DNA from: Candidatus Limnocylindria bacterium
Lineage (GTDB): Bacteria; Chloroflexota; Limnocylindria; P2-11E
DNA: 59,034 nt
NCBI GenBank assembly: GCA_041493915.1
Contig: JBGPZT010000003.1
Span: forward strand, 1 to 59,034
Reading direction: 5' to 3'
The position numbers were made by a program, and so were the translations under genes. This document shows positions 12,560-44,446 of the stretch, piece after piece. The number at the start of each line of letters is the position of its first letter. Positions within the stretch are counted from its first letter, which is position 1. Below the pieces are notes generated by a model. The model did no database searches. It was not told where the DNA came from and saw only the letters and a program-made list of their open reading frames with translations.

Positions 12560-12643
12560 CTGAGCTACCCCTTGGCTCCCGCTGGTGCTGCGCTGAGAGC
12601 CGATTCTCAGAGCGCTCTAAGAGCAGCCCAAGCCAATCCCCAG
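12560..12643. promoter_or_regulatory. Mirror-image 4+4 MprA-box-like array
   Basis: CTGAGC,CTTGGC,CTGGTG,CTGAGA -N6- TCTCAG,TCTAAG,CCCAAG,CCCCAG, all at 11-bp period. Confidence 0.75.
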
Positions 12644-12745
12644 CGACGACCGCGAGCCTAGGCCGAACGGAGCTTCGCCACGAGACCGAGCGCAGGTCGT
12701 TCTTCTCGCCCGCGAGGGACCACGGCGGACACGCGCCTTGGTTCT

Positions 12746-12777
12746 GTGGCTTACGGTCGAATGCGGCGGTCTTGAAA
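12746..12777 (+). mobile_element. tRNA-Ser(TGA)-like 5' half fragment, putative att remnant
   Basis: GGTCGAATGCG-GCGGT-CTTGAAA resembles a D-arm, anticodon stem 5' strand and loop; similarity stops after the loop. Confidence 0.5.
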
Positions 12778-12831
12778 GACGCTGCAATGCCATTCTGCTG
12801 AGGCCGTGTTCATTGGGCTCTCGTGATGATC

Positions 12832-12854
12832 TGGTGCCAATCATGGTGCCAATC
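12832..12854 (+). repeat. Tandem direct repeat TGGTGCCAATC x2, possible integrase arm-type sites
   Basis: Perfect 11-mer at 12832 and 12844. Confidence 0.6.
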
Positions 12855-13462
12855 GCAACCTTCACGTCAGTTTGCTAGTGGCGCTGCCGACACCGCGGTT
12901 CCTGTAGAACGCGATCCAACCGCGTTCGGGGCGTCGGCTGCGACGGACGCGCCCTCATGGCTTGGCAAGCCAGCGCGAAGTCGTGTGAGGACTGCACGGA
13001 GATGGCCCCGCCGCGCGGGACCATCTCCGTGCGGGTGCGCTACTTCGGCTTCGGGGTGGTCGGCTTTGTCGTCGTGCTCGAACAGCAGGCTCCGCAACAG
13101 TTGCCGCACGCGCAGGCCATCTAGCAACCTCCAACCGTTTCTCCCTGAGACTGTATTCGCCGTACGGCTGGCGGCTTCATAACATCAGCGCATACGACTC
13201 AGGGTCCGGTCGAACGGGGGCGAACCAATACGCTGCGATTCGACCGGTTGCTGCGGATCGAACGAAGCTCGGTCGCGGCGGCGCGTAGCGACTTTACGAG
13301 GCGAGCCGGGGAACTCTGCCGCAGTCGGCTCGCATTTAGGGCGTCGGCGGCCGGCGCCGTTGCGTCGATCTCGATCATCTTCGAGTCGCTCGTCCCCGCA
13401 TCGCCTACTGCCGCCCCTGCCGCAGCACGGATTCGCAGAAGGCGGGGCACACCGGGTGTCGC

Positions 13463-13993
13463 TCAGCTACACGCGACACGTGTGAAATCGCCTTGGCTCT
13501 CGATCTCTTCGACGGTCCACATCGTCTTGATGTAGGCGAGGATCTGGTCGAGCTGTTGACCCGAGAGCTTACCTCTGAACGCTGGCATCTGGGGCGTATC
13601 GGGGCTGACCGGCGGGTCGCCGCCTTCTAGCACGTACGCCTTGATCTGGCAGTCCGCGTGGTGCCAAGTGTGACCGATGGCAGTGTGCACCGGCACGTGA
13701 GCAATGGGTGCGCCGCCGATCGGTCCGCCATGGCAGCTGTAGCAGTTCGCGCCGTAGAGCACGGCACCGCTGCGCTCCTGCGGCGAGAGATTCGTACGGG
13801 TCAGTAGTTGGGCCGGCACCGTCTGGATGGCGGAGAAACTTGCGCCCGCCCCCAGCATCAGCCAGACAAAGGCACCGGCGACGAGAACGAAAACGACTCC
13901 CACGATGAGGCCGATGACGATTCCGGGCCCGCGTCGATGTCCGCGTGAGCCGCTGAGCCCGCCGCCAGCTGGGCGAGCTTCATGATCATGCAC
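13463..13993 (-). CDS. Membrane-anchored cytochrome c
   Basis: CYSCH, GHTWHH, MPAF distal Met; N-terminal TM helix; start uncertain. Confidence 0.85.
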   Translation of the reverse strand: MHDHEARPAGGGLSGSRGHRRGPGIVIGLIVGVVFVLVAGAFVWLMLGAGASFSAIQTVPAQLLTRTNLSPQERSGAVLYGANCYSCHGGPIGGAPIAHVPVHTAIGHTWHHADCQIKAYVLEGGDPPVSPDTPQMPAFRGKLSGQQLDQILAYIKTMWTVEEIESQGDFTRVACS

Positions 13994-14317
13994 AGACCCG
14001 CCGTCTACGAGCGCGGATAGTACGCGCGCTTGGACTACCTGCTGTGTCCTCGCTAGGCCACGCTGAGCTCTTGGTTTTCCGTCGCTGTCTCGACCCCATC
14101 GCATTGAGAAGCGCGCCTTGGCGAACGCAGGCCGAAGGCCTCAAGCGTCTCGAGGCCGATCTCAGGGACCAGCAGCCAAACATGGCCTCCAGCGGCGTCC
14201 GCCGGGCAATAGGCGCCGCAGTCCCTGTGCGTCGTTAACCGCAGTTGGGGCTTCTGATGCCGGTGATGGTCCGGCCGAATGCAGACGTATGAGATGCACG
14301 GCTCGGACGTGTTGTGC

Positions 14318-14960: not shown

Positions 14961-15473
14961 TCACTCGACCACGACCGTGGCTCGCATTCCGAGATCGGCG
15001 TGACCCGGCACGCTGCAGTAGGCGTCATAGCGTCCGGCCGTGAGGCCGCGCAGCCCGACCGTGTGGGTCTCACCCGCGTTGGCAACGATGTGGATGCCGA
15101 GCGCAGGCACGGTGAGGTCATGCACGACGCCGTTCGCGGCTGGGTTGACGAGGGTGAGATTCACGTCCGCGCTCTTCGATAGCCGGATCTCGTTCGGCGT
15201 GAAGCTGAAGTTCGCCACCTGCACGCGGACTTCGGTCGCACCGGGGATCGCGCTGGCGGGAGGCCCCGAGGTGCCGAAGCCCATCATGCCGGGACCCATC
15301 ATTCCCGGCCCCATGTGGCCGGCGCCCATCATGCCCGGTCCTATCTGCCACGCCGTCGACGGATCGTTGCCGAAGGCGCCGGTCGCGCCGGCGAACGCCG
15401 AGCCGGCCACGGCGAAGACGAGAAGGAGCCCCGCGATCAGCGCGGTAAGGCCAGCGATACGTTGGGCGTTCAC
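14961..15473 (-). CDS. Cupredoxin (type-1 Cu) with GPGMMG repeats
   Basis: HDL...YCSVPGHADLGM ligands; signal/TM segment. Confidence 0.9.
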   Translation of the reverse strand: MNAQRIAGLTALIAGLLLVFAVAGSAFAGATGAFGNDPSTAWQIGPGMMGAGHMGPGMMGPGMMGFGTSGPPASAIPGATEVRVQVANFSFTPNEIRLSKSADVNLTLVNPAANGVVHDLTVPALGIHIVANAGETHTVGLRGLTAGRYDAYCSVPGHADLGMRATVVVE

Positions 15474-15703
15474 GGTTTGGCTTCCGCGATCGCGGCGCGG
15501 CGGACCCGGAACTCCTCTGCGTCGATCTCGCCTCGCGCAAGCCGCTCCTCGAGGATGCGCATCGCTCCGCTTTGACTCTCGCTGCCGCGGGCCTGCGACC
15601 GGCTGAGCATGAGCACGAGCCACACGACCAGCGCGATGACGAAGACCCAGAACAGCAGCATGACGAGACCGCCGATTCCGAACGAGGAGCCGTACATCAT
15701 CAC
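15470..15703 (-). CDS. SHOCT domain membrane protein
   Basis: ILEERLARGEIDAEEF. Confidence 0.85.
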   Translation of the reverse strand: MMMYGSSFGIGGLVMLLFWVFVIALVVWLVLMLSRSQARGSESQSGAMRILEERLARGEIDAEEFRVRRAAIAEAKP

Positions 15704-15746
15704 CAGGGACCTCCAGTTGACCCTGATCGCAGCGTGACACCGCGGC

Positions 15747-15830
15747 CTGAGGCGTGACTTGGGGCCCGCTGGCAGAGCGCTGAGAAAGCCTTCTCAGCGC
15801 GCTTTAAGGCTCGACCAAGGGGCGCTCCAG
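15747..15830. promoter_or_regulatory. Mirror-image 4+4 MprA-box-like array in divergent promoter
   Basis: CTGAGG,CTTGGG,CTGGCA,CTGAGA -N6- TCTCAG,TTTAAG,ACCAAG,CTCCAG at 11-bp period. Confidence 0.78.
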
Positions 15831-15878
15831 CCAGGCCCGCGAGGCTACGAGCAACGCGCCGCGTGATGCGAGAAAGGG

Positions 15879-16988
15879 ATGATCGGCATGGCGACCTCCG
15901 CACCGGCTCCGACGACTGTGACCGCACCTGGCAATCCCCTTGGTCGTATCTGGGACTGGTTCTCCGACCGCGCGGGCCTTGCGGCTCTGGCGTACCCCGT
16001 GCCGGCGCACGCGAACCGTCTTGGGTACACCCTCGGCGGGATCAGCTTCGTCGGCTTCCTCGTGCTCGCCCTCAGCGGTTTCTGGCTCGCGCAGTTCTAC
16101 GACCCGATGCCCGAGCACGCTCGCGGCTCGCTGGAGTTCATCCAGAACGACGCCGCGCTCGGCGCCTTCGTGCGCGGCCTCCACTTCTGGGTCGCGAACA
16201 TCGTCGTGATCACGGTCTTCCTGCACATGGTCCGCGTGTTCGCGACCGCATCGTTCAAGCGACCTCGTGAGCTGAACTGGATCTGCGGTGTTGCGCTCCT
16301 GGGCGTGACGATCGCGTTCGCTTTCACCGGCTCGGTCCTCAAGTGGGATCAGGAGGCCTGGGAGGCGCTTCAGCACAACCTCGAGGTCGCTGCGGTCCTC
16401 GGCGGGCTTGGCACGTTCTTTTCGGAGTCGTTCACCCAGGCCGTTCCGGTGCTCGCGCGCCTGTACGCCGCGCACGTGAGCATCCTCCCGCTCATCGCCA
16501 CGCTGCTCTTCGTTTCGCATTTCTTCCAGGTCAAGCACCACGGCATCTCGCCACTCCCGGCAGCGGCCGACCATGATGAGGCACCCGAGGGCAAGGTCCA
16601 GGCCTCCCAGCTCACGGCCCGCTACCTCGGGCACCTCGGGCGCATGTTCGGCTTCGGCCTTCTCATCGCCGCGATCGCAGCGGTGCTCGGTCTGATCTTC
16701 CCGGCCACGCTGGGCGAGGCGCCGGATCCGTCGATGGAGGTCACCAAGCCGCCGTTCTTCTTCTACTGGCTCTACGCCTTCGAGGACTGGTTCGGCCTCC
16801 GGGCGATCCTCTACGGCGGCGTCTCCTTCTTCGCGGTGCTGCTCCTCGTGCCGTTCGTGGATCGCTCGCCGTGGCGCAGTCTGCGCCGACGGCCTGTCTT
16901 CGCCGCGCTCGGTGGACTCGCACTCGTCGCACTCGTGGTGTTGTCGTTCATCGTCTTCTTCTCGCCGGTCGTGGAGCACCTGGAATAG
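15879..16988 (+). CDS. Cytochrome b/b6-like protein (bc-complex family), no Rieske gene nearby
   Basis: LGG..F, RGLH...LHM, FTGSVLKWDQ, AAH...SHF; four heme His. Confidence 0.9.
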   Translation: MIGMATSAPAPTTVTAPGNPLGRIWDWFSDRAGLAALAYPVPAHANRLGYTLGGISFVGFLVLALSGFWLAQFYDPMPEHARGSLEFIQNDAALGAFVRGLHFWVANIVVITVFLHMVRVFATASFKRPRELNWICGVALLGVTIAFAFTGSVLKWDQEAWEALQHNLEVAAVLGGLGTFFSESFTQAVPVLARLYAAHVSILPLIATLLFVSHFFQVKHHGISPLPAAADHDEAPEGKVQASQLTARYLGHLGRMFGFGLLIAAIAAVLGLIFPATLGEAPDPSMEVTKPPFFFYWLYAFEDWFGLRAILYGGVSFFAVLLLVPFVDRSPWRSLRRRPVFAALGGLALVALVVLSFIVFFSPVVEHLE

Positions 16989-16990
16989 CC

Positions 16991-17185
16991 GTGCGTACCG
17001 TCGCCTTCTGGCTCTGGTTCGTGGTCGCAACGGCGGCGCTCGGGCGCCTCTGGTGGACGGTCGATCATGGCGGCCTCTTCGTTCGCTTCGGTGCGGCAGA
17101 CGCGATCGCGCTCGTGGCGCTCCTCGTGTCAGGCTTCGTGTTGGCGCGCGTCGAGTACGAAACCGCGCGGGTCGGGCGGAAGTAA
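16991..17185 (+). CDS. Small 2-TM membrane protein
   Basis: Fills the operon gap exactly; hydrophobic. Confidence 0.65.
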   Translation: MRTVAFWLWFVVATAALGRLWWTVDHGGLFVRFGAADAIALVALLVSGFVLARVEYETARVGRK

Positions 17186-17836
17186 GTGGACGCGTCGGTC
17201 GCGCTCGCCAGCGCATATCTCGAGCTCAACGGCTTCTTCGTCCTTACCGAGCTGCCGGTCCAGATCGCCGACCGACAGGGCTACCGCACGGCGACGGACC
17301 TCGACGTGCTCGCGGTGCGCCTGCCGCATGCGGCGGAGCTCGTGCCCGCGGCGCGTGCCCCCGCCCACGACCTCCTGCTGGGTCAGGACTCGCTGCTCGA
17401 GACCGATCGTTGGAGGACAGAGGTGCTGATCGCCGAGGTCAAACGTGGCCGGGCGCATATCAACGAGGGCTACCACGATCCCGCGGTGCTGCGGTTCGCG
17501 CTCCGGCGGACGGGCTGCTGTCCCACGGAGATGCTCGACGCGCACGCCGCCACTCTCGCCCAGAGCGGCGCGATCGAGACCAAGAGCGCCGACGGTCATC
17601 CCTGCCGCATCCGCATCGCCTCGTTCGCCGGTCAGCCGGCGCCGCTTTCGGGTGGCGTCCTCTCGATCGGCCTCGCACATTGCATCGCCTTCATCCGCGA
17701 GCGCCTCGAGCATTACCAGCCGCAGTTGCGCGGCGCGTACTTCCGCGACCCCGTGCTGAACCTACTGGGACTCGTCGCTCTGCTATCGGCGGTGCCACAG
17801 AAGGAGAAAGAGAAGGAGAGCGTGCATGCCTCGTAA
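17186..17836 (+). CDS. Hypothetical protein with PD-(D/E)xK-like motif
   Basis: AYLELNGF..E...TDLDVLAVR...IAEVK. Confidence 0.65.
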   Translation: MDASVALASAYLELNGFFVLTELPVQIADRQGYRTATDLDVLAVRLPHAAELVPAARAPAHDLLLGQDSLLETDRWRTEVLIAEVKRGRAHINEGYHDPAVLRFALRRTGCCPTEMLDAHAATLAQSGAIETKSADGHPCRIRIASFAGQPAPLSGGVLSIGLAHCIAFIRERLEHYQPQLRGAYFRDPVLNLLGLVALLSAVPQKEKEKESVHAS

Positions 17837-18266
17837 GCAACCGCAGCGGCGTTCATCGAACCTGCGTCTCCGCATCGCCATCTTCGCGATCCTCGCCCTG
17901 GCCGTCGCGGGTGGCGCCGCTTACGCACTCTGGCCCAAGGAGCTTGCGACAGCGGACGCCGCACCCGTTGACGTGACCATGCGGATCGACATGAGCGGCT
18001 TCACGCCGCCGACGATCTCAGCGCCGGCCAATCGGCTGGTCCGTGTCCGGATCGTGAATCCCGACAGCAGCCATCACAGCGACGGCGGCGGCGTGCACGG
18101 CTTCACCATCGTGAAGCTTGGTGTCGACGCCAAAATCCAACCCGAGACGACCCAGGTCGTCACGATCCCGCCTTCTGCCGCCGGTGAGTACGCCTTCTAC
18201 TGCGACACGTGCTGCGGGGGCAAGGAAAACCCGGCGATGCAGGGCGTGTTGAAGCTCAAGGCATGA
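17826..18266 (+). CDS. Membrane-anchored cupredoxin with atypical CuA-like loop
   Basis: VHGF...FYCDTCCGGKENPAM. Confidence 0.85.
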   Translation: MPRKQPQRRSSNLRLRIAIFAILALAVAGGAAYALWPKELATADAAPVDVTMRIDMSGFTPPTISAPANRLVRVRIVNPDSSHHSDGGGVHGFTIVKLGVDAKIQPETTQVVTIPPSAAGEYAFYCDTCCGGKENPAMQGVLKLKA

Positions 18267-18970
18267 GCGGCGTCGATCTCAATCTGGCCACCGTCGTCCT
18301 CGCCGGCCTGGTCGACGGCATCAACCCCTGTGCGATCGCCGTGCTGCTCGTCTTCGTCTCCGCCACGCTCCTCGCCGTCGGCGCGACGATGGAGGGCGGG
18401 CTCGGCGAGCGCCGGCGCGCGCTCTTCAAGGGCGGCGCCGCCTATGTGACCGGCATGTTCATCACCTACCTCTTGATCGGTCTCGGCCTCATGGGCTTTG
18501 CCGGCGCGCTTCGCCAGGACCACCTCGGCACGAAGATCTTCGCCGTCGTCGCGATCGGTTGGAGCGTCCTCGCGTTGCAAGAAGCGCTACTGCCGGAGCT
18601 CGGCGAGCGGTTGCGTATGCCGCCGATGCTGCACAGCCGGGCGCAGAGTTGGGTGCAGCGCGCCTCGCTCCCGGGTCTCTTCGTTGCCGGCTCGCTCATC
18701 GGCCTCTGCACCGTGCCCTGCTCCGGGAACGTCTATCTCGCCGTGCTCGCGCTCCTGTCGAGCCGTGCCGACCTTGGACAGGCGCTTGGCTACCTCGTCA
18801 TCTACAACCTCGCCTTCGTCGTGCCGCTCATCGCGCTCCTGGGCGCTGCGGCCACGCCCGTGGCGATGCGCGCGCTCGCGCGCTGGCAGTTGCACAACCG
18901 CGCGGCACTGAAGCTCGCGCTCGGCCTGACGACGGCGCTCGTCTCGCTCGCAGCGTTGGCGGTCGTCTAA
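18263..18970 (+). CDS. CcdA/DsbD-like transmembrane thiol-disulfide transporter
   Basis: DGINPCA and LCTVPCSG; about 6 TM. Confidence 0.8.
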   Translation: MSGVDLNLATVVLAGLVDGINPCAIAVLLVFVSATLLAVGATMEGGLGERRRALFKGGAAYVTGMFITYLLIGLGLMGFAGALRQDHLGTKIFAVVAIGWSVLALQEALLPELGERLRMPPMLHSRAQSWVQRASLPGLFVAGSLIGLCTVPCSGNVYLAVLALLSSRADLGQALGYLVIYNLAFVVPLIALLGAAATPVAMRALARWQLHNRAALKLALGLTTALVSLAALAVV

Positions 18971-18974
18971 AGCG

Positions 18975-19772
18975 ATGACGGTCGACATCGATCCGGTCAT
19001 CGTCCATCTCGGTCCGTTCGCCCTCGGCTGGTACGGCTTATTCGTCGCGCTCGCCATCGGGGTCGGCATGTGGCTCGCGTTCCATGAGGCGCGCCGCAGG
19101 GGCCTGCCGATGCAACAGATGGAGTCGCTTGCGACGTGGGTCTTCGTCGGCGGCGTGGCCGGCGCGCGGGCGCTCCACGTCATCGACCGCTGGGATCTGT
19201 ACGCGGCCCAGCCACACATGATCTTTGCGATCTGGAACGGCGGGCTCGCGATCATGGGTGCCGTATTGGGTGGGACGCTCGCCGGTCTCTTCGTCGCCTG
19301 GCGGCGCGGCCTACCGGTGCGCGCGATCTCCGATGCCGCCGCGCCCGGTGTGATCCTCGGTCAGGCTATCGGGCGCTTCGCGTGTCTCTTCACCGGAGAT
19401 GCCGTGGGCCGCGCGACTACCGGTATCGGGATCACCTACCTGAACCCGGGCGCGATGGTCCCACAGCTCGGCGTGGCGTACGAGCCGGTGTTCGTGTATG
19501 AGATGGCCTGGGACCTCGGGGTCTTCGCCGTGCTCTGGTGGCTGCGCCCGCGGCTGCGCGTCGAGGGGCAGCTCTTCGCCGTCTACCTCGCGCTCTACGC
19601 GATCGGGAAGTTCGCGCTCACCTTCCGTCGGGCCGAGACGGTCTGGATCGCCGGTCTCCAGGAGGCGCAGCTCCTCTCCCTCGCCGCCCTGGGCCTCGCT
19701 GCGCTCTGGGGATGGTCGAGTCTGCGCGCGCACACGGTCGCCGGCCTCTCCGCGCAGAGGACGCGGTCATGA
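18975..19772 (+). CDS. lgt: Prolipoprotein diacylglyceryl transferase
   Basis: IDPV..LGP..WYG, GAR, IWNGGL, GQAIGR; some canonical residues are altered. Confidence 0.8.
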   Translation: MTVDIDPVIVHLGPFALGWYGLFVALAIGVGMWLAFHEARRRGLPMQQMESLATWVFVGGVAGARALHVIDRWDLYAAQPHMIFAIWNGGLAIMGAVLGGTLAGLFVAWRRGLPVRAISDAAAPGVILGQAIGRFACLFTGDAVGRATTGIGITYLNPGAMVPQLGVAYEPVFVYEMAWDLGVFAVLWWLRPRLRVEGQLFAVYLALYAIGKFALTFRRAETVWIAGLQEAQLLSLAALGLAALWGWSSLRAHTVAGLSAQRTRS

Positions 19773-20413
19773 CTGGCGGCACGACCATCGACAGGCGAGC
19801 ACCGAGTAGTGCCACGCGCAGCGTGGCACGCGTCTACGACCGTATCGCCTTCCTGTACGACCTGTACGACGCACCAATGAACGCGCTCGGCGGTCGGAAG
19901 CGGCGACGCCAGCTGATCGCGCGTGCCCATGGCAAGGTCCTTGAGGTCGGCATCGGCACTGGCGCGAATCTCGATCTCTATCCCGCCGGCATCGACCTCG
20001 TCGGCATCGACGTCTCGCCCCGGATGCTCGCGAAGGCGCGTCGTCGTGCCTCGCGGCTCGGCGCCAACGTCGCGCTGCGCGAGGCGGACATCGAGCGTCT
20101 GCCGTTCCCCGACGCCACCTTCGACACCGTCGTTGCCACGTGCGTCTTCTGCTCGGTGGCCGACCCTGCCCGGGGTCTCGACGAGGTTCGTCGAATCCTC
20201 AAAGCAGGCGGATCCGCCCTACTGCTCGAGCATGTCCGTCCCGAGAATCCCGTGATGGGGCGGCTCGCGGACCTCATCAGCCCGCTCGTCAAACGGCTCG
20301 TCGGACCAGAGTTGAATCGCAACACGGAAGAGACCGTCGCGCGCTCCGGGCTACGCGTCCTCGAGGTCCGCCGCGAGACGATCTGGCGCGAGATCGTCGC
20401 CACCCGCGACTGA
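19769..20413 (+). CDS. Class I SAM-dependent methyltransferase
   Basis: VLEVGIGTG, FDTV, FCSV, LLEHV. Confidence 0.9.
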   Translation: MTGGTTIDRRAPSSATRSVARVYDRIAFLYDLYDAPMNALGGRKRRRQLIARAHGKVLEVGIGTGANLDLYPAGIDLVGIDVSPRMLAKARRRASRLGANVALREADIERLPFPDATFDTVVATCVFCSVADPARGLDEVRRILKAGGSALLLEHVRPENPVMGRLADLISPLVKRLVGPELNRNTEETVARSGLRVLEVRRETIWREIVATRD

Positions 20414-20438
20414 CCGCGGAGGCTCGGCGCCGCGGGTT

Positions 20439-20477
20439 TCTCAGCCGATGCTCAGAGCGTCCCAATCTTCGCGCCAG
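20439..20477 (+). promoter_or_regulatory. MprA-box-like array
   Basis: TCTCAG,GCTCAG,CCCAAT,CGCCAG at 11-bp period, 8 bp before the GTG. Confidence 0.65.
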
Positions 20478-20485
20478 CCCGCGTC

Positions 20486-21601: not shown

Positions 21602-21605
21602 CGCG

Positions 21606-22721: not shown

Positions 22722-23623
22722 ACGCTCCCACACTCTCGGTCTCACATCTCACCAAACGCTTCGGGACGGCCGCGACCGAGGTCGTCGCCGTTCGTGATGT
22801 CTCGCTCGAGGTCGCACCCGGCGAGGTGGTGCTCATCATGGGGCCATCGGGGTCCGGTAAGACCACGCTGCTCCTCATGCTCGGCGCGCTGCTGCGCGGG
22901 AGCGAGGGCGAGATCCGCCTGGACGGCGAGGTCCTGAGCGCGCTCCCGGAGGACAAGCTGCCCGCGATCCGGCTGCGCCGCTTCGGCTTCATCTTCCAGG
23001 ACTTCAACCTGCTCTCGGCGCTCACCGCGCTCGAGAACGTCGCGATCGTCGCCGAGCTCGCTGGCGTGCGTAGCAAGGACGCCAAGGCGCGCGCGACCAA
23101 GCTGCTGCTGGACCTCGGCCTCGGCGAACGCTTGCACTTCCTGCCGGAGAAGCTGTCGGGAGGCGAGAAGCAGCGAGTGGCGATCGCCCGGGCCCTGGTC
23201 AACGACCCCACCTTCATCCTCGCCGATGAGCCGACCGCGAACCTCGACTCCAAGATCGGACACGAGATCATGCGGCTCCTGCGATCGATCGCGAAGGAAC
23301 AGGGACGTTCGATCGTGATCGTCTCCCACGACCAGCGGATCAAGGACATCGCCGACCGCGTGCTGTGGCTCGAGGACGGAGCGTTCAAAGAGGCCACGGC
23401 GATGCTCGTCGATCCGGTCTGTGGCATGCATGTCGAGCAGGCGAGCGGTATCGTCGCGGTCTGGGATGACGAGCGCTTCGCCTTCTGCTCGCGCGGCTGC
23501 CGCGATGAATTCCTCGCCAAGCCGTACCGCTTCTTCGCGGACGCCGAAGCGTCCGGGCGCCATGAGACAGCAGTGCGCGACGTGGTGCGACAGGAAGCGG
23601 CGCTTGCGGGAGGTCGAACGTGA
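22718..23623 (+). CDS. ABC ATP-binding protein (LolD/MacB-like) with C-terminal YHS domain
   Basis: GPSGSGKT, LSGGE, ADEPT; DPVCGM...FCSRGC. Confidence 0.92.
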   Translation: MNAPTLSVSHLTKRFGTAATEVVAVRDVSLEVAPGEVVLIMGPSGSGKTTLLLMLGALLRGSEGEIRLDGEVLSALPEDKLPAIRLRRFGFIFQDFNLLSALTALENVAIVAELAGVRSKDAKARATKLLLDLGLGERLHFLPEKLSGGEKQRVAIARALVNDPTFILADEPTANLDSKIGHEIMRLLRSIAKEQGRSIVIVSHDQRIKDIADRVLWLEDGAFKEATAMLVDPVCGMHVEQASGIVAVWDDERFAFCSRGCRDEFLAKPYRFFADAEASGRHETAVRDVVRQEAALAGGRT

Positions 23624-24420
23624 CCTTTGAACATGGCCCCGAGAGACACCCGGACGCGGCCTCCGAGGGGCAAACACCGGTATCGTCTTCGGTGGTGGCC
23701 ACCGACACCGCGCAGGCGCCCGGCGCGGGTCCGGCCCGTCCCGGTCGGCTGCTCGTCGTCGACGACGACGAGAACGTCACGAACATGCTGCGCCGCGCGC
23801 TCTCGTTCGAGGGCTACGCGGTCGCGACCGCGCGCGACGGTGCCGCCGCGCTGAAGAAGACGCTCGAGTTCGCTCCCGACCTCGTGGTGCTGGACATCAT
23901 GATGCCGGGCATCGACGGCGTGGAGGTCGCCCGGCGTCTGCGCGCGGGCGATCCGCAGCTCGCGATCCTCATGCTCACCGCCAAGGACGCGGCTGCCGAC
24001 CAGATCGTCGGCCTCGACGCCGGCGCCGACGACTACCTCGTGAAACCGTTCACGCTCGAGGTGCTCACCGCACGCATCCGCGCGTTGCTGCGGCGCAAGG
24101 AGCCGAGTGAGGTCGAAGTGCTGCGCTTCGTCGACCTTGCGCTCGATACCGGCACGCGCAGCGCGCGGCGCGGCACGCGCGAGATCGCGCTCACCACCAC
24201 CGAGTACGAGCTCCTGCTCCAGTTCCTGCGCCACCCGCGCCAGGTGCTCGAGAAGGAGCAGCTCACCGAGAAGGTCTGGGGCTACGACTTCGGTGGCAAC
24301 TACAACGTGCTCGAGGTGTACGTCCGCTACCTCCGCCAGAAGCTGGAGGCCGCCGGCGAGCCGCGGCTCATCCACACGCTGCGCGGCGCCGGATACGTCC
24401 TGCGCGAGCCCGCGACCTAG
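23620..24420 (+). CDS. OmpR-family response regulator, MprA-like
   Basis: LRRALSFEGY, LDAGADDY, VWGYDF..NVLEVYVRYLRQKLE..GEPRLIHTLRGAGYVLRE; true start may be downstream. Confidence 0.9.
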   Translation: MTFEHGPERHPDAASEGQTPVSSSVVATDTAQAPGAGPARPGRLLVVDDDENVTNMLRRALSFEGYAVATARDGAAALKKTLEFAPDLVVLDIMMPGIDGVEVARRLRAGDPQLAILMLTAKDAAADQIVGLDAGADDYLVKPFTLEVLTARIRALLRRKEPSEVEVLRFVDLALDTGTRSARRGTREIALTTTEYELLLQFLRHPRQVLEKEQLTEKVWGYDFGGNYNVLEVYVRYLRQKLEAAGEPRLIHTLRGAGYVLREPAT

Positions 24421-24432
24421 GACGCCGGCGGC

Positions 24433-25827
24433 GTGAGTATCCGCCTGCGGCTCGCGCTCTGGTACGGAGCGCTTCTCGCGTTCGTGCTCGGCGCCACGCT
24501 CGCCGTCGCGTTCGTCATCCACACCGGGTCCCATGAGAGCGATGTCGATTCGTCGCTGCGCACGTCCTGGGAACACGCGGCCTCAGAGCTCACCGCCCGT
24601 GGCACCGATCCGTCGCACCTCGCGACCCTCACCAAGCCGGCGCAAGCAGCGAGCTCGCCGACAGCGATCTGGCTGGTCATCCTGGGCGACACCAACGCGC
24701 TTGGCGGCGGGGACACCGAGGATCCGCTCCTCTCGCAGTTCCGGCCCGCGTCTGCGAGTGATGGGCTTCAGGACTCACGACTTGCGAACGGCCGCGTCCG
24801 CGCGTACGCCGCGAACCTGCCGGGTGTCCAAGGTACGCGGCTCGTCGTGGCCGCATCGATGTCGGCATTCGACGCGTCGCTCGGCAATCTCGGCCTGATC
24901 CTCGCCCTCATGGGCCTCGCGGGCATCGCGTTCGCGGTGACCGGCGGGTGGGCGATCTCCGCCGGCGCCTTGCGGCCGATCGCAAGGATGACCGAGACGG
25001 CGCGCGCGATCGCGGTCTCCCGCGGCTTCGCCCGGCGGATCGAGGTCCGCGACGAGGGCCGCGACGAGTTGAGCGAGCTCGGGCGCACGTTCAATTCCAT
25101 GCTCGCTAGCCTCGACGATGCGTATCGGCGCCAGCAGCGCTTCGTCGCTGATGTCTCGCACGAGCTGCGCACACCGCTCACTGCGTTGCAGGGCGACCTC
25201 GAGCTCCTCGCGCGCGGTCAGCTTCCCCCGGACGAGGCCCAGGCGACGCTCGCCGAGGCGCGTCAGGAGACACGCCGTCTCGCGCGGCTGGTCGATGATC
25301 TGCTCGTGCTCGCGCGGGCGGACTCTGGTCCGCAGCCCTTCATTGGCAAGCCTGTGCCGCTCGACGAGGTCCTGATGGAAGTGTTCCGCGAGCTGCGCGG
25401 CCAGGCCGGATCGCGTTTGCGCGTCGTCGACCTCGAAGCAAGCGTCGTGGTGGGGGAGCGTGATCGGCTCAAGCAGCTGGTCCTGATCCTCACCGACAAT
25501 GCGCTGTCGTATACGCCGGGCGATGGGGCGGTGCTGCTCTCGCTGCGCCGCGACGGCAGCGAGACGGTGCTCGCGGTCGAGGACGAAGGGATCGGCATCA
25601 GCTCGGAGACTGCGGCGCGCGCCTTTGAGCGCTTCTACCGCGGCGAGGAGGCGCAACGTCTCGATCCCGCGGGAACGGGTCTTGGGCTCTCCATCGCGAA
25701 GTGGATCGTCGAGCGCCACGGCGGCGCCATCACCCTCGCGCAACGCGCTTCCCGCGGGACCGTCGTGACGGTACGTCTGCCGGCCGTCGTGCAGCTGGAG
25801 TCAAAGGCGGACGCGACCGCGGCCTGA
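24433..25827 (+). CDS. HAMP sensor histidine kinase
   Basis: SHELRTPL, DNA, DEGIGI, GTGLGL. Confidence 0.92.
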   Translation: MSIRLRLALWYGALLAFVLGATLAVAFVIHTGSHESDVDSSLRTSWEHAASELTARGTDPSHLATLTKPAQAASSPTAIWLVILGDTNALGGGDTEDPLLSQFRPASASDGLQDSRLANGRVRAYAANLPGVQGTRLVVAASMSAFDASLGNLGLILALMGLAGIAFAVTGGWAISAGALRPIARMTETARAIAVSRGFARRIEVRDEGRDELSELGRTFNSMLASLDDAYRRQQRFVADVSHELRTPLTALQGDLELLARGQLPPDEAQATLAEARQETRRLARLVDDLLVLARADSGPQPFIGKPVPLDEVLMEVFRELRGQAGSRLRVVDLEASVVVGERDRLKQLVLILTDNALSYTPGDGAVLLSLRRDGSETVLAVEDEGIGISSETAARAFERFYRGEEAQRLDPAGTGLGLSIAKWIVERHGGAITLAQRASRGTVVTVRLPAVVQLESKADATAA

Positions 25828-26212
25828 GCACGACGATGGACCCGTGATCTGAATCGTCCTCGCGTTCGTTTCGCTGCTGTCGTTCAGGCTGCGCTTGTGC
25901 AACCCTCGTCGACAGATAGAGTCCCGACCTCCCGCGGCGGTTCCGTTAGAGAGAGAACGCTGCGCCGAGCGTACCCGGCGTCCGAAGGGCCCCCGAGGTA
26001 AAGCCGTTTGGACTCTCTAGCGGCGGTTTGTCTGCTTAGAACATGCGCATGCTGTCATCTCAAACGCATCCTCAATTCGCCCAGCGTCGCCCGTCACGGC
26101 CGATTCCGATTCACAGCCGAAAGGTCCTCAGGCCGCTCTCAGCCGCGTTCCAGAACGGCGCAAGCCGCGAGCACGACGATGGACTCGTGATTTGGATCGG
26201 CCTCGCGTTCGT
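25826..26212 (+). repeat. 44-bp imperfect direct repeat (25826-25869 / 26169-26212)
   Basis: 40/44 identical; the first copy is a dead duplicate of the cupredoxin gene start (TGG to TGA). Confidence 0.75.
26126..26153 (+). promoter_or_regulatory. MprA-box-like array
   Basis: CCTCAG,TCTCAG,TTCCAG at 11-bp period. Confidence 0.65.
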
Positions 26213-26752: not shown

Positions 26753-26795
26753 AGAGGCGGATCTGTCCGCCCAGCGTTTATTTCTCATTCCGAAC

Positions 26796-39430: not shown

Positions 39431-39718
39431 CTAGCGGCGTACTTCGGCCATACGGCCGGCAGCCTCTTCTCGTGGCAGGGCGAGGCGCGTGAGCACGACG
39501 AGCAGGGCGCCGCCGTAGAGCGCGTACAGCGCGAGCTCGATCGAGCCGAGGATCCAGCTCCCCAAGGAGAGGCCGGATACGCCCGGTAGCCACGGCTCCC
39601 ACGCGCGGTACATCGCGAGACCGGAGAAGATGCCGTCGGCCGCGAGACAGATCGCGTAGCTCACCACCAGGAAACCGCCGACGATGAAGGCCACGGGCCA
39701 GAAGCGCAGCTGATGCAC
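39431..39718 (-). CDS. DUF5676-like small membrane protein
   Basis: SYAIC...MYRAW..WLPG...LG.IE. Confidence 0.65.
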   Translation of the reverse strand: MHQLRFWPVAFIVGGFLVVSYAICLAADGIFSGLAMYRAWEPWLPGVSGLSLGSWILGSIELALYALYGGALLVVLTRLALPREEAAGRMAEVRR

Positions 39719-39973: not shown

Positions 39974-40624
39974 CTAGCGCTGGCTCAACGCCACCTTCAG
40001 CCCAGCGAGTTTCGGGATGAAGCGCGGCGTTTGGGCCGCGAAGGTGTCCCACTGCTGTCCGTACGCAGCACGGACCTCACGCTCCTCGGCGATCGCGAGT
40101 CGCCGGTAGGCGAGGACGAGAACGGGGAACATGAGCAGAGTGGGGATCGTCGGCCACTGGACCAGGAACCCGATCATGATCAGCAGGAAGCCGGCGTACT
40201 GTGGGTGCCGGATCCGCGCGTAGGGTCCGGTAAGGGCGAGATGGCCGTCCCGCTGTGCTTGCCAGAGCACGTTCCAGGCGGCCGAGATGAGCCAGAAGCC
40301 GCCGCCGATGAAGGCGTAGCTCGCGATGTGGAAGGGGCTCAGGTGCGGGTCGGCCGTCCAGCCGATGAGATCGTTCCAGAGGTGGCCGCCGCCGTGCGTC
40401 AGCGTGAGCGCGGGGAAGCGGCTCCCGAGCCAGCCGGAGAGCAGGTAGATCGTGAGCGGAAACCCGTACATCTCAGTGAAGAGCGCCACCACGAACGCGG
40501 AGAAGACGCCCATCGCGCGCCAGTCGCGCGGGGATTTCGGCTTGAGGAAGCTGCGCGCGAGCATGATGAAGAAGGCCGAGTTGATGACGACCAGGATCCA
40601 GAGGCCATACCCGTAGTCATCCAT
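39974..40624 (-). CDS. Isoprenylcysteine carboxylmethyltransferase family membrane protein
   Basis: ALFTEMYGFPLT, GPYARIRHPQY. Confidence 0.88.
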   Translation of the reverse strand: MDDYGYGLWILVVINSAFFIMLARSFLKPKSPRDWRAMGVFSAFVVALFTEMYGFPLTIYLLSGWLGSRFPALTLTHGGGHLWNDLIGWTADPHLSPFHIASYAFIGGGFWLISAAWNVLWQAQRDGHLALTGPYARIRHPQYAGFLLIMIGFLVQWPTIPTLLMFPVLVLAYRRLAIAEEREVRAAYGQQWDTFAAQTPRFIPKLAGLKVALSQR

Positions 40625-40712: not shown

Positions 40713-40751
40713 CTTCATCGTTCCTTCACACCGCTCGCCACCGACCTTCAC
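40713..40751 (+). promoter_or_regulatory. CTTCAY direct-repeat box (candidate site for the second response regulator)
   Basis: CTTCAT 40713, CTTCAC 40724, CTTCAC 40746 (11- and 22-bp spacing). Confidence 0.55.
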
Positions 40752-40800
40752 GCCCGGGCGCCATCGTCTGGGTAACAAGACCGAAAGGAAGGTGTTCAAC

Positions 40801-41031
40801 ATGATGGTCGGAATGGGAATTGGCTGGGGCTTCGGCCTCGGGTGGCTGGCGATGGTGCTCTTCTGGGTCTTCGTGGCGGCCGGGATCGCATGGCTCGTCC
40901 TCACGCTCGGTCGCTCCCCGCAGGAGCGCGGCCACGCGGCCTCGATCCTCGCGGAGCGCTACGCGCGCGGCGAGATCGATAGCGAGGAGTTCAAGGCACG
41001 CACGCACGCGATCGAGGAGGCCGCTCGATGA
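40801..41031 (+). CDS. SHOCT domain membrane protein
   Basis: ILAERYARGEIDSEEF. Confidence 0.85.
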   Translation: MMVGMGIGWGFGLGWLAMVLFWVFVAAGIAWLVLTLGRSPQERGHAASILAERYARGEIDSEEFKARTHAIEEAAR

Positions 41032-41579
41032 ACGCCACGAAGATCTTCGGCATCGTCACAGCGGTCTCCGGCGCGGCGCTCCTCCTCCTCGGCGTGGTCG
41101 CCGGCGCGTCCGCGATGACGCGCGGCGTGGCCGATCTATCCATCGCACCCAGCGGCGTGTCGTTCCCGATGGGCATGGGCACGCCGTCCATGGGCGGTGG
41201 CATGGGCATGATGGGCTCGGCCGGTATGGGTCCGGGCATGATGGGGTCCGGCCACATGTACGGCGGGGGCGGCGCCGCCACCACATCCAGCGCGGCGATC
41301 CCCGGCGCACCAGAGGTGCGCGTCACGGCCACTGAATTCACGCTCTCCCCGGCGGAGATCGTCCTCCCCGCCGGCGGCGCGGTGAACCTCACGCTCGCCA
41401 ACCGCGGCGCGCTGCCGCACGACCTCACCATCCCCGCGCTCGGCGTGCACATCGTCGTCGCGGCCGGGCAGACGCAGACCGTTGGTCTGCGGGACCTGTC
41501 CGCTGGCAGCTACCCCGCGTACTGCAGCGTGCCCGGGCACGCCGACGCGGGAATGCGCACCACCGTCGTCGTCCGTTAG
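41028..41579 (+). CDS. Cupredoxin with Met/Gly-rich linker
   Basis: PHDL...YCSVPGHADAGM. Confidence 0.9.
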   Translation: MNATKIFGIVTAVSGAALLLLGVVAGASAMTRGVADLSIAPSGVSFPMGMGTPSMGGGMGMMGSAGMGPGMMGSGHMYGGGGAATTSSAAIPGAPEVRVTATEFTLSPAEIVLPAGGAVNLTLANRGALPHDLTIPALGVHIVVAAGQTQTVGLRDLSAGSYPAYCSVPGHADAGMRTTVVVR

Positions 41580-41583
41580 GGAC

Positions 41584-42315
41584 ATGGTCGCGTTCGACGA
41601 GAATGGGCCCGTGCGCGGGCCCGTTCTCGTTGTCGACGACGAGCAGAAGATCCGTGACCTCCTCCGCGCGTACCTCGAGCGCGCGGGCTTTTCCGTCCTC
41701 ACGACCGGCTCGGGCGCGGACGCACTCGAGCAGGTGCGTCGTGCCGCTCCCGCGCTCGTCGTCCTCGACCTCGGGCTCCCGGACGTGCCGGGCGAGAGCG
41801 TGCTCCGCGAGCTTCGCAGCGAGACGGCGACGCCCGTCCTCGTGCTCACTGCGCGCGCATCCGAGGAAGACCGGCTCATCGGTCTCGGCCTCGGCGCCGA
41901 TGACTACGTCACCAAGCCGTTCAGCCCGCGTGAGGTCGTGCTCCGCGTGGAGGCGATCCTGCGTCGCGCCGCCCCGCAGGCCGAGCAGGCCCAGGAGCCG
42001 GTGCGCGCCTTCGACCGCGGTGGGTTGGTGATCGATACCGTCCGCCACGAGATCCGACGCGATCGGACAGTCGTGGCCCTTACTCCGACGGAGTGGGGCA
42101 TCCTCCTCGCGCTCGCCGAGCGGCCCGGACGGGCGTTCTCCCGCGCCGAGCTCATCAACCGCGTGCAGGGCTACGAATACGAGGGCTACGAGCGCACGGT
42201 GGACGCGCATGTGAGGAATCTGCGGCGCAAGCTCGAGCGCGATGCCCGCGCGCCGCGCGTAATCGAGACCGTGCCTGGCGTGGGCTACCGCTTTGGGGCG
42301 AAACCCGATGCTTGA
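41584..42315 (+). CDS. OmpR-family response regulator (BaeR/CopR-like)
   Basis: VVDDE, GADDYVTKPFS, ERTVDAHVRNLRRKL. Confidence 0.9.
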   Translation: MVAFDENGPVRGPVLVVDDEQKIRDLLRAYLERAGFSVLTTGSGADALEQVRRAAPALVVLDLGLPDVPGESVLRELRSETATPVLVLTARASEEDRLIGLGLGADDYVTKPFSPREVVLRVEAILRRAAPQAEQAQEPVRAFDRGGLVIDTVRHEIRRDRTVVALTPTEWGILLALAERPGRAFSRAELINRVQGYEYEGYERTVDAHVRNLRRKLERDARAPRVIETVPGVGYRFGAKPDA

Positions 42316-43705
42316 GCTCGGCCGCCTCGGCCGCCGTCTCGCGCTCGCGGCGGTCGCTGCGTCCTTCGTGGCGGTCCTGGTCGTCGCCGCGATCGATGTC
42401 GTGGCGCTGCGGCTCGAATTCGAGCGGTTCTCGCGTTCACAACAGGACGAGCGCGTGACGCAGATCGTCGCGAGCCTGGCCGACGCTTACGCGCTGCGCG
42501 GCTCGTGGTCGCCGGTGGACATCATCGGCGCTCAGCATCTCGCTGCTGTCTCGGGCGCTTCGCTCGTCCTGCATGACGCGGGCGGCACCGAAGTGATCGC
42601 GACGGGCGACATGGGGATGTCGACGATGCCGGGCATGCATGAAGCCGGCGCCCTGGGACCCGAGCGACGCGAGCCGATCCTCGTCGACGGGCGCGTCGTG
42701 GGGACGGCCGCGCTGCGTTTCCCGGCGGGCGATCTGCTACCGGCCGAGAGGGAAGTGCGCGACGCGCTCGCTCGCGCGCAGGTCCTGGGGGCGCTCGCCG
42801 CCGCGCTCATCGCGCTGCTCTTCGCGGTCGTCGTCGCACGCCGGATCACGCGTCCACTGGCGGCGCTTGCCGCGGCGACCGAGGCGCTGCGCCGCGGCGA
42901 GCGGGGCGCGCGCGTCGCCGCCCGGGGCGACGACGAGGTCGGCGACCTCGGACGAGGATTCAACGCGATGGCCGACGCGCTCGAGCGCGAGGACCAGCTA
43001 CGCCGCCAGCTCCTCGGCGACGTGGCCCACGAGCTGCGCACGCCGCTCACGAACATCCAGGGGCACCTCGAGGCGCTCCGCGACGGTGTGTTGCCCGCCG
43101 AACCCGCGACCTTCGCGTCTCTACACGATGAGGCCTCGCGCCTTGGTCGCCTCGTCGCCGACCTCGAATCGCTCGCGCGCGCCGAGGCCGCGGGCCTCTC
43201 GCTGGAGCGCGCCCCCTGCGACCTCGCCGCCGTCGCTCGCGACGTAGCGGCGGAGCTCGACGATCGCTTCCGTGCGAAGGGCGTCTCGCTTGACCTGGCG
43301 CTCGGACCCGCCGAGGTCCTCGGCGATGCCGATCGGTTGGCTCAGATCGCGCGCAACCTGCTTTCGAACGCGCTGAAGTACACGCCCGTGGGTGGGCACG
43401 TGCGCCTGGTCACGGCGCGCGACCAGCGTCGCGCGATGCTCGACGTCACCGACGACGGGCCGGGCATCGCCAGGGATGATCTTGCGCACGTCTTCGATCG
43501 CTTCTGGCGCGGCACGAACACCGCCGGCGTGTCTGGGAGCGGCATCGGTCTCACAGTCGCGCGTGAGCTCGCGCGCGCTCACGGCGGCGACCTTATGGCG
43601 CGCAGCGAGCTCGGGCGCGGTAGCACGTTCACCGCGGCACTCCCGCTCGCCCATGCGCCAGCCGTGGCGGCTCGTCAGGAACGGATGATCGACCAGGCGA
43701 GGTAG
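42308..43705 (+). CDS. Sensor histidine kinase with Met/His-rich sensor loop
   Basis: AHELRTPL, NLLSNA, GSGIGL; DMGMSTMPGMH. Confidence 0.9.
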   Translation: MLELGRLGRRLALAAVAASFVAVLVVAAIDVVALRLEFERFSRSQQDERVTQIVASLADAYALRGSWSPVDIIGAQHLAAVSGASLVLHDAGGTEVIATGDMGMSTMPGMHEAGALGPERREPILVDGRVVGTAALRFPAGDLLPAEREVRDALARAQVLGALAAALIALLFAVVVARRITRPLAALAAATEALRRGERGARVAARGDDEVGDLGRGFNAMADALEREDQLRRQLLGDVAHELRTPLTNIQGHLEALRDGVLPAEPATFASLHDEASRLGRLVADLESLARAEAAGLSLERAPCDLAAVARDVAAELDDRFRAKGVSLDLALGPAEVLGDADRLAQIARNLLSNALKYTPVGGHVRLVTARDQRRAMLDVTDDGPGIARDDLAHVFDRFWRGTNTAGVSGSGIGLTVARELARAHGGDLMARSELGRGSTFTAALPLAHAPAVAARQERMIDQAR

Positions 43706-43802
43706 GCGCCCAGGCCAGCGGCGAAGAAGAAGCCGACGGCGAACGCGACGAGTGGTGCCCAGGCCTCCCAGCCGGCGGGTGGGGGCCTCGACGCTCGTCA
43801 CC

Positions 43803-44078
43803 TCACGCCGCGCGTTCCCATGACGCCCCGATGCAGCGCGGCTCGACGATCACGTCGGCGAGCGCTCCCGCGGACCGACCGACGGCGAGCGCGATCTCGG
43901 GTTGCGCGGTGGTGAGATGCACTTTGATGAGCGACTCGTCGCCAGCGACGGCGATCGCGCCGCCGTGCGGCTCGTCCCCAAGCCTCGCGGCGAGCTCGCG
44001 CTGCAACGCGTCTGCTGGACGGAACGGCTCGACGATGAGGTACTCGACGCGGTAGCGGCGCGCTCGCCCTGCGCTCAT
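43803..44078 (-). CDS. Small protein resembling the DAK2/FakA middle domain
   Basis: VAGDESLIKVHL...P motif. Confidence 0.55.
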   Translation of the reverse strand: MSAGRARRYRVEYLIVEPFRPADALQRELAARLGDEPHGGAIAVAGDESLIKVHLTTAQPEIALAVGRSAGALADVIVEPRCIGASWERAA

Positions 44079-44097
44079 AAGAGCGGGCCGCTCATGT

Positions 44098-44298
44098 TCA
44101 GTGATGCCCGTGCTCATGTGTGTGTTTCCCGCATCCGCCGTGGTCGGGATCGGCGCCGTTGCGAAGGTAGCGTCCGGGATCAGCATCGAAGCGCTCCTTA
44201 CAGCGCGGGCAACGGAAGCGGTACGTGATGCCTTTATAGACAGAGGTTGGCGCGGTCTCGCGATCGACGGGCTTGGCGCAGACGGGGCAGTCGAGCAT
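44098..44298 (-). CDS. YHS domain protein with His-rich tail
   Basis: CPVC...YRFRCPRC..F...P..Y; HTHEHGHH; GAGGAGG RBS. Confidence 0.85.
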   Translation of the reverse strand: MLDCPVCAKPVDRETAPTSVYKGITYRFRCPRCKERFDADPGRYLRNGADPDHGGCGKHTHEHGHH

Positions 44299-44362
44299 TT
44301 TGTCCTCCTCGCGCGTCTTTGGGAGGCGCACTTCATCTTGGTGCCCAGCGTGACTGCGTTGC

Positions 44363-44446
44363 CTGACGAGGCGCTGTGACCCACCTGAGGCACGCCTGAG
44401 AAGCGGTTCTCAGCGGCCAACCAGCGTAGGTCCAGCCCGATTCCAG
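44363..44446. promoter_or_regulatory. Mirror-image 4+4 MprA-box-like array in divergent promoter
   Basis: CTGACG,CTGTGA,CTGAGG,CTGAGA -N6- TCTCAG,AACCAG,GTCCAG,TTCCAG at 11-bp period. Confidence 0.8.

Follow-up and report, generated by a model that had tools for sequence, protein, structure and literature searches.

Phased TCTCAG arrays with a fixed promoter geometry on a copper island of a Candidatus Limnocylindria bacterium, and an MprA/PhoP-like response regulator as their likely reader

The contig JBGPZT010000003.1 of a Candidatus Limnocylindria bacterium, analysed here as a complete 59-kb contig (59,034 nucleotides; C12, called the window below), carries arrays of TCTCAG-like hexamers that are repeated at an exact 11-bp period in front of the genes of a copper-themed island. 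The arrays end at a fixed distance from a -10-like hexamer, are conserved at orthologous promoters of related genomes, and occur in the same genomes as the response regulator encoded at 23620 (RR1), whose histidine kinase is termed HK1. We consider it likely that the arrays are tandem sites for phosphorylated RR1 and act as activator-dependent promoters (P1-P11); from the sequence we infer the binding, the activation, and copper as the signal. The island also encodes a second regulator at 41482 (RR2) with its own kinase (HK2). The genome concerned (G000; 2.82 Mb in 257 contigs, GC content 68%, completeness 89.5%) was compared with 60 relatives, i.e. 61 genomes in all, and these tallies include two unpublished genomes (G022, G031), counted as negatives only. 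The gene map was built from third-position GC and Pfam.

Phased arrays and their promoter geometry

Phased arrays had been claimed at eight coordinates in an earlier note on this DNA. All eight regions (12560, 15747, 20439, 26126, 26796, 39758, 40648 and 44363) were inspected, and each arm indeed contains four hexamers at an exact 11-bp period. TCTCAG is the best hexamer, the remainder ending in CAG or AAG; slots 1 and 2 are of the highest quality (TCTCAG, CTCAG), slots 3 and 4 are weaker (CAAG, CCAG), and the slots at 26796, 40664 and 44379 have the variant TCACAG. Since three of the regions are back-to-back pairs (12598/12605, 15785/15792 and 44401/44408) with the common core CTGAGA-N6-TCTCAG, the eight regions amount to 11 promoters (Table 1). 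Nine arrays, falling in six regions, satisfy a four-slot rule, by which each of four slots spaced by 11 bp must hold [C/A]AG and one or more of them CTCAG: 12598(-), 12605(+), 15785(-), 15792(+), 26126(+), 26796(+), 40686(-), 44401(-) and 44408(+). One degenerate slot each is found in 20439(+), where slot 3 is CCCAAT, and in 39796(-), where slot 2 is ATACCG.

Enrichment over background, which the earlier note had proposed to check, is present at period 11 only, as seen in a composition-matched, model-free scan comparing periods 6-18 in the window and in the whole 2.82-Mb genome. Under the four-slot rule, period 11 gave nine matches in the window, the same nine as in the genome, and periods 6-10 and 12-18 gave none in the window and 0-1 genome-wide. 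When three slots with at least two CTCAG were required, 5/5 matches at period 11 lay in the window and every other period gave zero. A three-slot scan placed 15 of the genome's 20 period-11 matches in the window, with 2-10 matches genome-wide at other periods. A 56-nt weight matrix, trained on 28 arrays from 11 loci, all of them in genomes other than G000, found 12 matches above 12 bits in G000, with none in the reversed sequence used as control: ten distinct promoters and one shifted register on C12, and one weak match on C143. The matrix thus recovered 10/11 promoters above 12 bits, including 20439, missed by the four-slot rule; the remaining one, 39796(-), scored 10.0 bits, and the reversed control gave one match above 4 bits in the window. 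The claim that no arrays lie outside the island held as well, no site above 4 bits being found by the matrix in the window outside 12.5-44.5 kb.

As the earlier note had also stated, each arm faces a gene, with the sole exception of 12605(+), 3' of which an ORF (open reading frame) search detected neither an ORF nor a homolog. A pseudogene at this place was considered and rejected, as there was no ORF and no tblastn match better than E 0.01 except the end of the neighbouring cytochrome c gene. The stretch 12121-12660 is a paralogous copy of 15319-15847 (70% identical over 545 bp in the window self-comparison), and the arm at 12605 lacks a gene because this copy stops at 12660, immediately behind the right arm's -10. 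For the same reason, the regions 12560 and 15747 are not independent. Within a wider duplication, the module of SHOCT and cupredoxin-like genes with its divergent promoter region is present twice (11907-12660 and 14963-15847, 70-80% identity), and a third, inverted copy of the SHOCT and cupredoxin-like module (40831-41573) heads the RR2 operon.

The geometry of the promoters is uniform. Between the end of slot 4 and a -10-like hexamer, which follows the pattern NANNNT (GAGCCT, GAGGCT, CACGCT, GACGAT, CATGGT and CACTGT are among the examples), lie 10 nt, and this spacer is fixed in 11/11 promoters of the window and in 28/28 arrays of relatives. NANNNT fits 10/11 window promoters, and A at position 2 is present in 11/11; in the 28 arrays of relatives the A at position 2 and the T at position 6 are near-invariant, at 2.3 bits each. 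No -35 element was found in the array promoters, and a consensus scan of 25700-27000 detected no sigma-70 promoter of the -35/-10 type. Direct repeats thus stand in place of the -35 element and stop about 10 nt short of the -10, as in class II promoters. In E. coli pho-box promoters, too, direct repeats replace the -35 element and end 10 bp before the -10. A distance of 6-7 nt separates the -10-like hexamer from the start codons at 20501, 26187, 40624 and 44469, so the respective transcripts look leaderless, suggesting that leaderless mRNAs may be frequent in this organism. By contrast, leaders with a Shine-Dalgarno sequence precede the SHOCT, cytochrome b, ATPase and YHS genes.

A repeat of the -10 region and the 5' end of the cupredoxin gene (25826-25883 vs 26169-26227, 86% identical) was observed directly after the HK1 stop codon. 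This copy has no array and is followed by about 300 bp of DNA of lower GC before the functional-looking promoter; in relatives, the array directly follows HK1.

RR1, its distribution and its recognition helix

Among the 60 relatives, 12 have an ortholog of RR1 (81-89% identity), which makes 13/61 with G000 included. Three-slot arrays are present at 11/12 of the ortholog loci, each of which holds 2-11 at period 11 but no more than one at periods 9, 10, 12 and 13; the twelfth locus is only 2.2 kb long. A search of the 61 genomes with the four-slot pattern gave matches in 15. All matches of G042 and 3/4 matches of G057 were rejected as arrays, being perfect 11-bp tandem repeats and hence a different kind of feature: G042:C7:45137-45196 is (CTCAGTCGGCG)n and G057:C10:11232-11291 is (CTCAGTGCCGG)n. 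Non-tandem arrays occur in 13 genomes, which are exactly the 13 with RR1 orthologs, and the reversed pattern gave two matches in the 61 genomes.

Conservation upstream of orthologs, another check proposed in the earlier note, was likewise observed, the arrays being kept at orthologous promoters in other genomes. In the conserved core, a back-to-back array region separates SHOCT from a divergently oriented (cytochrome b)-cupredoxin-DsbD-Lgt-(ABC)-RR1-HK1 operon; cupredoxin-DUF2933 and ATPase-cupredoxin-AAA_28 follow, each behind an array of its own. The arrays of the M50/YHS pair, the ICMT-like methyltransferase and the small membrane protein are kept in G001, G002 and G008.

RR1 contains a receiver domain (PF00072, 1.2e-30) and a winged-helix output domain (PF00486, 1.5e-26), which places it in the OmpR/PhoB family. 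Its nearest named homologs come from metagenome-assembled genomes of Chloroflexota and Actinomycetota (52-59% identity), none of them of the same genus. A host outside the Actinomycetota, as presumed in the earlier note, is plausible; a weak indication is that a SPOR protein encoded outside the island has its best atlas cluster (0.97) in one where Chloroflexota is the most frequent phylum. In a Mycobacterium heidelbergense genome (G061), which has 11 regulators of the OmpR type, the best match of RR1 (56% identity, E 5.9e-73) heads an operon of response regulator, histidine kinase and trypsin/PDZ protease, which by its gene order we take to be mprA-mprB-pepD. In the alignment the recognition helices of RR1 and of this MprA ortholog are nearly identical, in agreement with the near-MprA helix noted earlier at 23620. 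Mycobacterial MprA binds TCTCAG-N5-TCTCAG (the MprA box); the boxes of mprA and pepD are sites of activation, and the targets of MprA, a regulator of the envelope-stress response, are sigE, sigB and pepD. In M. heidelbergense, TCTCAG-N5-TCTCAG lies directly upstream of the mprA ortholog and of pepD, and no other pair with period 11, and no pair at all with period 10 or 12, occurs within 6.5 kb. Another Mycobacterium locus (L101) was tried as mprAB and rejected, since its neighbours are citrate synthase and FAD enzymes and the order regulator-kinase-protease is missing; judging by synteny it is presumably prrAB.

The best solved relative of RR1 is PhoP of M. tuberculosis (E 4e-63; PDB 5ED4). 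As described in PMC4832192, PhoP binds TCACAGC-N4-TCACAGC direct repeats as a tandem dimer and contacts bases through N212, V213, E215, S216, Y217 and Y220, with S216 near the A at motif position 3. According to our alignment, RR1 keeps 5/6 of these residues (N212, V213, E215, Y217 and Y220) and has V in place of S216, a V that is likewise found in the M. heidelbergense MprA ortholog. The preferred base at box position 3 is T here and A in the PhoP box, and the change of S216 to V would match the change of A to T.

The chromosome offers a further instance of this pairing. A paralog of RR1 on contig C33 is 59% identical and has a near-identical recognition helix; its gene, next to a divergent gene for an Fe-S subunit, is closely preceded by TCTCAG-N5-TCTCAG (about 2090-2115), which is the genome's only other CTCAG-N6-CTCAG pair. 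Period-11 pairs were found at 6/17 paralog loci of relatives, with 0-1 at other periods; loci with similar pairs include L014, L016, L018, L021 and L022. Since island RR1, the mprA/pepD sites of M. heidelbergense and the C33-type paralogs all display it, the pairing of helix and box recurs in three independent settings, and this evidence for a recognition code is independent of the co-occurrence of arrays with RR1.

HK1 has two transmembrane segments and HAMP, HisKA and HATPase domains (Table 1). In its extracytoplasmic domain H30, H34, E35, D37, W46 and H48 are invariant in 8/8 orthologs, and a Met-rich stretch is present in 5/8; these sensor residues would weakly back copper as the signal. 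HK1 is 33% identical to the mycobacterial kinase, and its 3' neighbours are the cupredoxin/DUF2933 genes and the ATPase.

Proposed mechanism and competing explanations

In the mechanism that we propose, a signal from outside the cytoplasm, most probably copper, would cause HK1 to phosphorylate RR1. The winged helix of RR1 would bind the arrays head-to-tail, each protomer taking one hexamer and covering 11 bp, so that four slots would accommodate two dimers. The better quality of the distal slots suggests cooperative filling toward the promoter and, with slot 4 so close to the -10 and no -35 element present, the proximal protomers would occupy the -35 position, where they may recruit RNA polymerase as at PhoB-type promoters. 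The back-to-back pairs would drive divergent transcription. Because RR1-HK1 end an array-driven operon, positive autoregulation is expected. The putative regulon would comprise the Cu(I)-type P1B ATPase, cupredoxin-like, DUF2933, YHS and SHOCT proteins and a MacB-type ABC exporter, together with the cytochrome b/DsbD/Lgt operon, the M50 protease and the ICMT-like methyltransferase.

Several findings weigh against this assignment and should be considered together. In P9 the -10-like hexamer reads TACAAG and so lacks the T at position 6. Circularity affects the CAG columns of the weight matrix, since the training arrays were chosen by the same four-slot rule, but not the columns of the slot-1 TCT or of A and T in the -10. 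As the arrays and RR1 are linked on one patchy island and the genomes are kin, their co-occurrence shows shared inheritance more than specificity. With regard to MprA, a reciprocal best hit was not obtained, the MprA ortholog matching a regulator on contig C230 (5.3e-75) ahead of RR1 (1.5e-73), and no trypsin/PDZ (HtrA-like, pepD-type) protease was found near HK1 among the scanned island ORFs. The helix of RR1 is equally close to that of M. tuberculosis PhoP, a binder of TCACAGC-N4. MprA of C. glutamicum, as reported in PMC12113857, binds a loose and different motif, TKTTAAGAAM, so that membership in the MprA family alone does not predict TCTCAG. Against the copper models, RR1 scored 200.9 with TIGR01387 (curated cut-off 279.2) and HK1 scored 200.1 with TIGR01386 (curated cut-off 292.55), both under the cut-off, and the HK1 of the window is among those that lack the Met-rich stretch. 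Finally, the C33 paralog could bind the same boxes, its helix being almost identical. On these comparisons RR1 is best described as MprA-like, and not demonstrably as an MprA ortholog.

The last of these points leads to an alternative that we regard as unlikely, namely that the C33 MprA/PhoP-like paralog (or its counterparts on C230 or C220) is the main reader of the boxes, or one of their readers, as part of a housekeeping envelope-stress circuit in which RR1 is secondary. The box upstream of the C33 gene speaks for this, as does the slightly better match of the mycobacterial MprA ortholog to the C230 regulator. However, genomes such as G010, G014, G017 and G023 have paralogs of about 60% identity but no four-slot arrays, four-slot arrays occur only where RR1 orthologs are present (13/13), and RR1-HK1 lie within array-driven operons in the 11 loci examined.

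Alternatively, RR1 might be a repressor that occludes the promoters and is released upon induction. The overlap of the arrays with the -35 position is compatible with occlusion too, but this explanation appears quite improbable: there is no -35 element, none being detected by the consensus scan of 25700-27000; the end of the array 10 nt from the -10 reproduces the geometry of activator-dependent pho-box promoters; strong distal and weak proximal sites fit recruitment; and the mprA and pepD boxes of mycobacteria are activation sites.

Binding of the TCTCAG arrays by RR2 is very improbable. RR2 lies on the island, and its operon adjoins the array 40686(-); however, its orthologs (E <=1e-85) were found in only 5/61 genomes vs 13 with arrays, and eight genomes with a completeness of 80-95% have arrays and RR1 but no RR2 that could be found. 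RR2 is 38% identical to RR1, its helix differs (RTVDAHVRNLRRKLE), and a CTTCAY array of the same geometry, outside the TCTCAG regulon, precedes the SHOCT (40801)-cupredoxin-RR2 (41482)-HK2 operon. This array is unique in the genome, is kept in 3/4 RR2 loci of relatives, and is probably the autoregulatory site of RR2 itself. The distribution of the two regulators and the distinct CTTCAY array support the assignment of the TCTCAG arrays to 23620 rather than to 41482.

That the arrays are non-regulatory repeats, either duplication remnants or a mobile repeat element, is hardly tenable: 12121-12660 and 15319-15847 are paralogous copies, but conservation is limited to the hexamers and the -10 positions, with spacers that differ, the strand of the array always follows the gene, orthologous promoters elsewhere keep the pattern, and the window self-comparison shows no extended similarity among the other six regions.

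The copper island and its relation to known systems

The island extends from about 12 to 50 kb according to gene calls and Pfam. Its copper theme rests on the ATPase with CPC/YN/MxxSS motifs, Met- or His-rich cupredoxins, DUF2933 and YHS proteins, and it is this gene content that points to copper as the putative signal. The content that the earlier note had ascribed to the regulon (cytochrome b operon, ABC exporter, CopA, site-2 protease and ICMT) is borne out by Pfam. Of its broader claim, an MprA-like system running a copper/redox regulon, the MprA-like regulator, the box and the gene content stand, and copper as the signal would follow from gene content.

Table 1. Coordinates of the array promoters, regulators and principal genes of the island. 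Scores are matrix bits; the transcription units given for P1-P11 are those putatively driven by each array.
Feature	Position	Strand	Array or assignment	Score (bits)	Putative target or role
P1	12544..12598	(-)	TCTCAG/CACCAG/GCCAAG/GCTCAG, 10 nt, GAGCCT	40.0	SHOCT membrane protein gene (12272-~12510)
P2	12605..12659	(+)	Back-to-back partner of P1; complete with GAGCCT	41.5	No gene
P3	15731..15785	(-)		39.8	SHOCT gene 15470-15703
P4	15792..15846	(+)		34.6	Cytochrome b (15879)-unknown-cupredoxin-DsbD_TM-Lgt-methyltransferase operon
P5	20439..20493	(+)	Slot 3 degenerate	40.0	Apparently leaderless GTG 20501: FtsX-FtsX-ABC ATPase with YHS-RR1-HK1
P6	26126..26180	(+)		48.0	Apparently leaderless GTG 26187: cupredoxin-like protein, then DUF2933 (26564-26752)
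P7	26796..26850	(+)		29.0	His-rich DUF2933-like ORF (26882-27007), P1B-type ATPase, cupredoxin, AAA_28
P8	39742..39796	(-)	Weakest; orthologous sites in G008, G002	10.0	95-aa membrane protein (39431-39718)
P9	40632..40686	(-)		17.5	Apparently leaderless ATG 40624: ICMT/PEMT-type membrane methyltransferase
P10	44347..44401	(-)		27.0	YHS-domain protein (44098-44331)
P11	44408..44462	(+)	Back-to-back with P10	35.3	Apparently leaderless ATG 44469: M50 (site-2-type) protease with CBS
CTTCAY array	40713..40767	(+)	CTTCAT-N5-CTTCAC-N5-x-N5-CTTCAC, 10 nt, CATCGT		Outside the TCTCAG regulon
RR1	23620..24420	(+)	OmpR/PhoB-type response regulator, MprA/PhoP-like recognition helix		Proposed array binder
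HK1	24433..25827	(+)	2 transmembrane segments, HAMP, HisKA, HATPase		Cognate histidine kinase of RR1
RR2 and HK2	41482-43705
SHOCT membrane proteins	12272-12544, 15470-15703, 40801-41031	(-), (-), (+)	Pfam
Cytochrome c, then cytochrome b-cupredoxin-DsbD_TM-Lgt-methyltransferase operon	15879-20413		Pfam
Two FtsX/MacB permeases and ABC ATPase with YHS domain	20501-23623		Pfam
Cupredoxin and DUF2933	26187-26752
P1B ATPase	to 29468		CPC/YN/MxxSS motifs
Further cupredoxins and second ATPase	32754
ICMT/PEMT-like methyltransferase	39974-40624	(-)
YHS protein	44098-44331	(-)
M50 protease with CBS domain	from 44469
CsoR and CopA	46403-49158

Some details of the map deserve mention. The small His-rich ORF at 26882-27007 (+), between P7 and the ATPase, is a 5'-shortened DUF2933-like gene that is full-length at locus L031, and the start of the ATPase driven by P7 is probably near 27000 and not at 26874. 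The second P-type ATPase (32754-35150, +) lacks a CPC/CPH/CPS motif, has a His/Met-rich N-terminus and has no array directly upstream. Just outside the first array region, a stand-alone receiver-domain protein without an output domain is encoded at 11413-11769 (-). The Rfam scan of the window found a tRNA-Sec gene only (50469-50564, +), which adjoins the gene of an 802-aa protein with beta-helix and cupredoxin parts (50582-52990, -). Sequencing runs that match 20000-29900 number 24, all of them sediment-metagenome DNA, with no RNA run among them.

Compared with MprAB, the island has the same hexamer and spacing (TCTCAG-N5-TCTCAG), a near-identical helix in a regulator of 56% overall identity, and predicted autoregulation as in MprAB. 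It differs in having four slots per promoter and back-to-back regions of eight slots where MprAB has one pair, in a putative regulon of copper and envelope-redox genes instead of sigE, sigB and pepD, in the lack of both an adjacent HtrA-like protease and a clear reciprocal best hit, and in a host that is probably a member of the Chloroflexota. PhoP of M. tuberculosis binds as a tandem head-to-tail dimer, as proposed for RR1, and shares the 11-bp repeat and 5/6 base-contact residues, whereas its hexamer has A at position 3 where the island has T, and its signal and regulon also differ. With the pho box of PhoB and OmpR-type class II promoters, of E. coli geometry, the island has in common 11-bp direct repeats that replace the -35 element and end 10 nt before the -10, and, as proposed here, multiple dimers on sites of graded affinity; it differs in the hexamer, in the many transcripts that look leaderless and in the divergent back-to-back layout. 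Repeat patterns of PhoB/OmpR-type regulators are quoted in PMC4832192.

As in the CusRS/CopRS systems, a two-component system adjoins a copper-efflux ATPase and periplasmic copper proteins, and TIGR01387/TIGR01386 are among the best-scoring NCBIfam models, but the scores remain under the curated cut-offs and the sensor domain motifs are unrelated. The box of the island also differs from the copper boxes of E. coli CusR and C. glutamicum CopR. Literature searches that covered titles, abstracts and some article passages yielded no description of TCTCAG arrays in copper regulons.

The window thus probably presents a two-component regulon of the textbook, activator-dependent kind, remarkable for the tidiness of its arrays but involving no new mechanism. 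Tentatively, the comparisons might be joined into a single reading, in which the pairing of the MprA-type helix with TCTCAG would be an old portable code of Actinomycetota and Chloroflexota. A paralog of the chromosomal MprA-like system would have been captured by a patchy copper island, the two-box site would have been expanded to four-box and back-to-back eight-box nucleoprotein arrays firing divergent, largely leaderless promoters, and the HK1 extracytoplasmic domain with its HxxxHExD/WEH residues would be a new kind of copper sensor.

The finding is useful for annotation, as proteins of unknown role (SHOCT, DUF2933, YHS, the ICMT-like methyltransferase, the M50 protease and the MacB-type exporter with its YHS ATPase) would be tied to a copper/envelope response. 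It may also provide a natural test of the winged-helix recognition code, in which Ser vs Val at the position of PhoP-216 would correspond to A vs T at box position 3, and the island holds two sibling regulators that share one promoter architecture but use TCTCAG in one case and CTTCAY in the other. In a lineage of uncultured sediment bacteria without genetics, a complete predicted regulon, with its regulator, box, promoter geometry and targets, can be derived from the sequence by itself.

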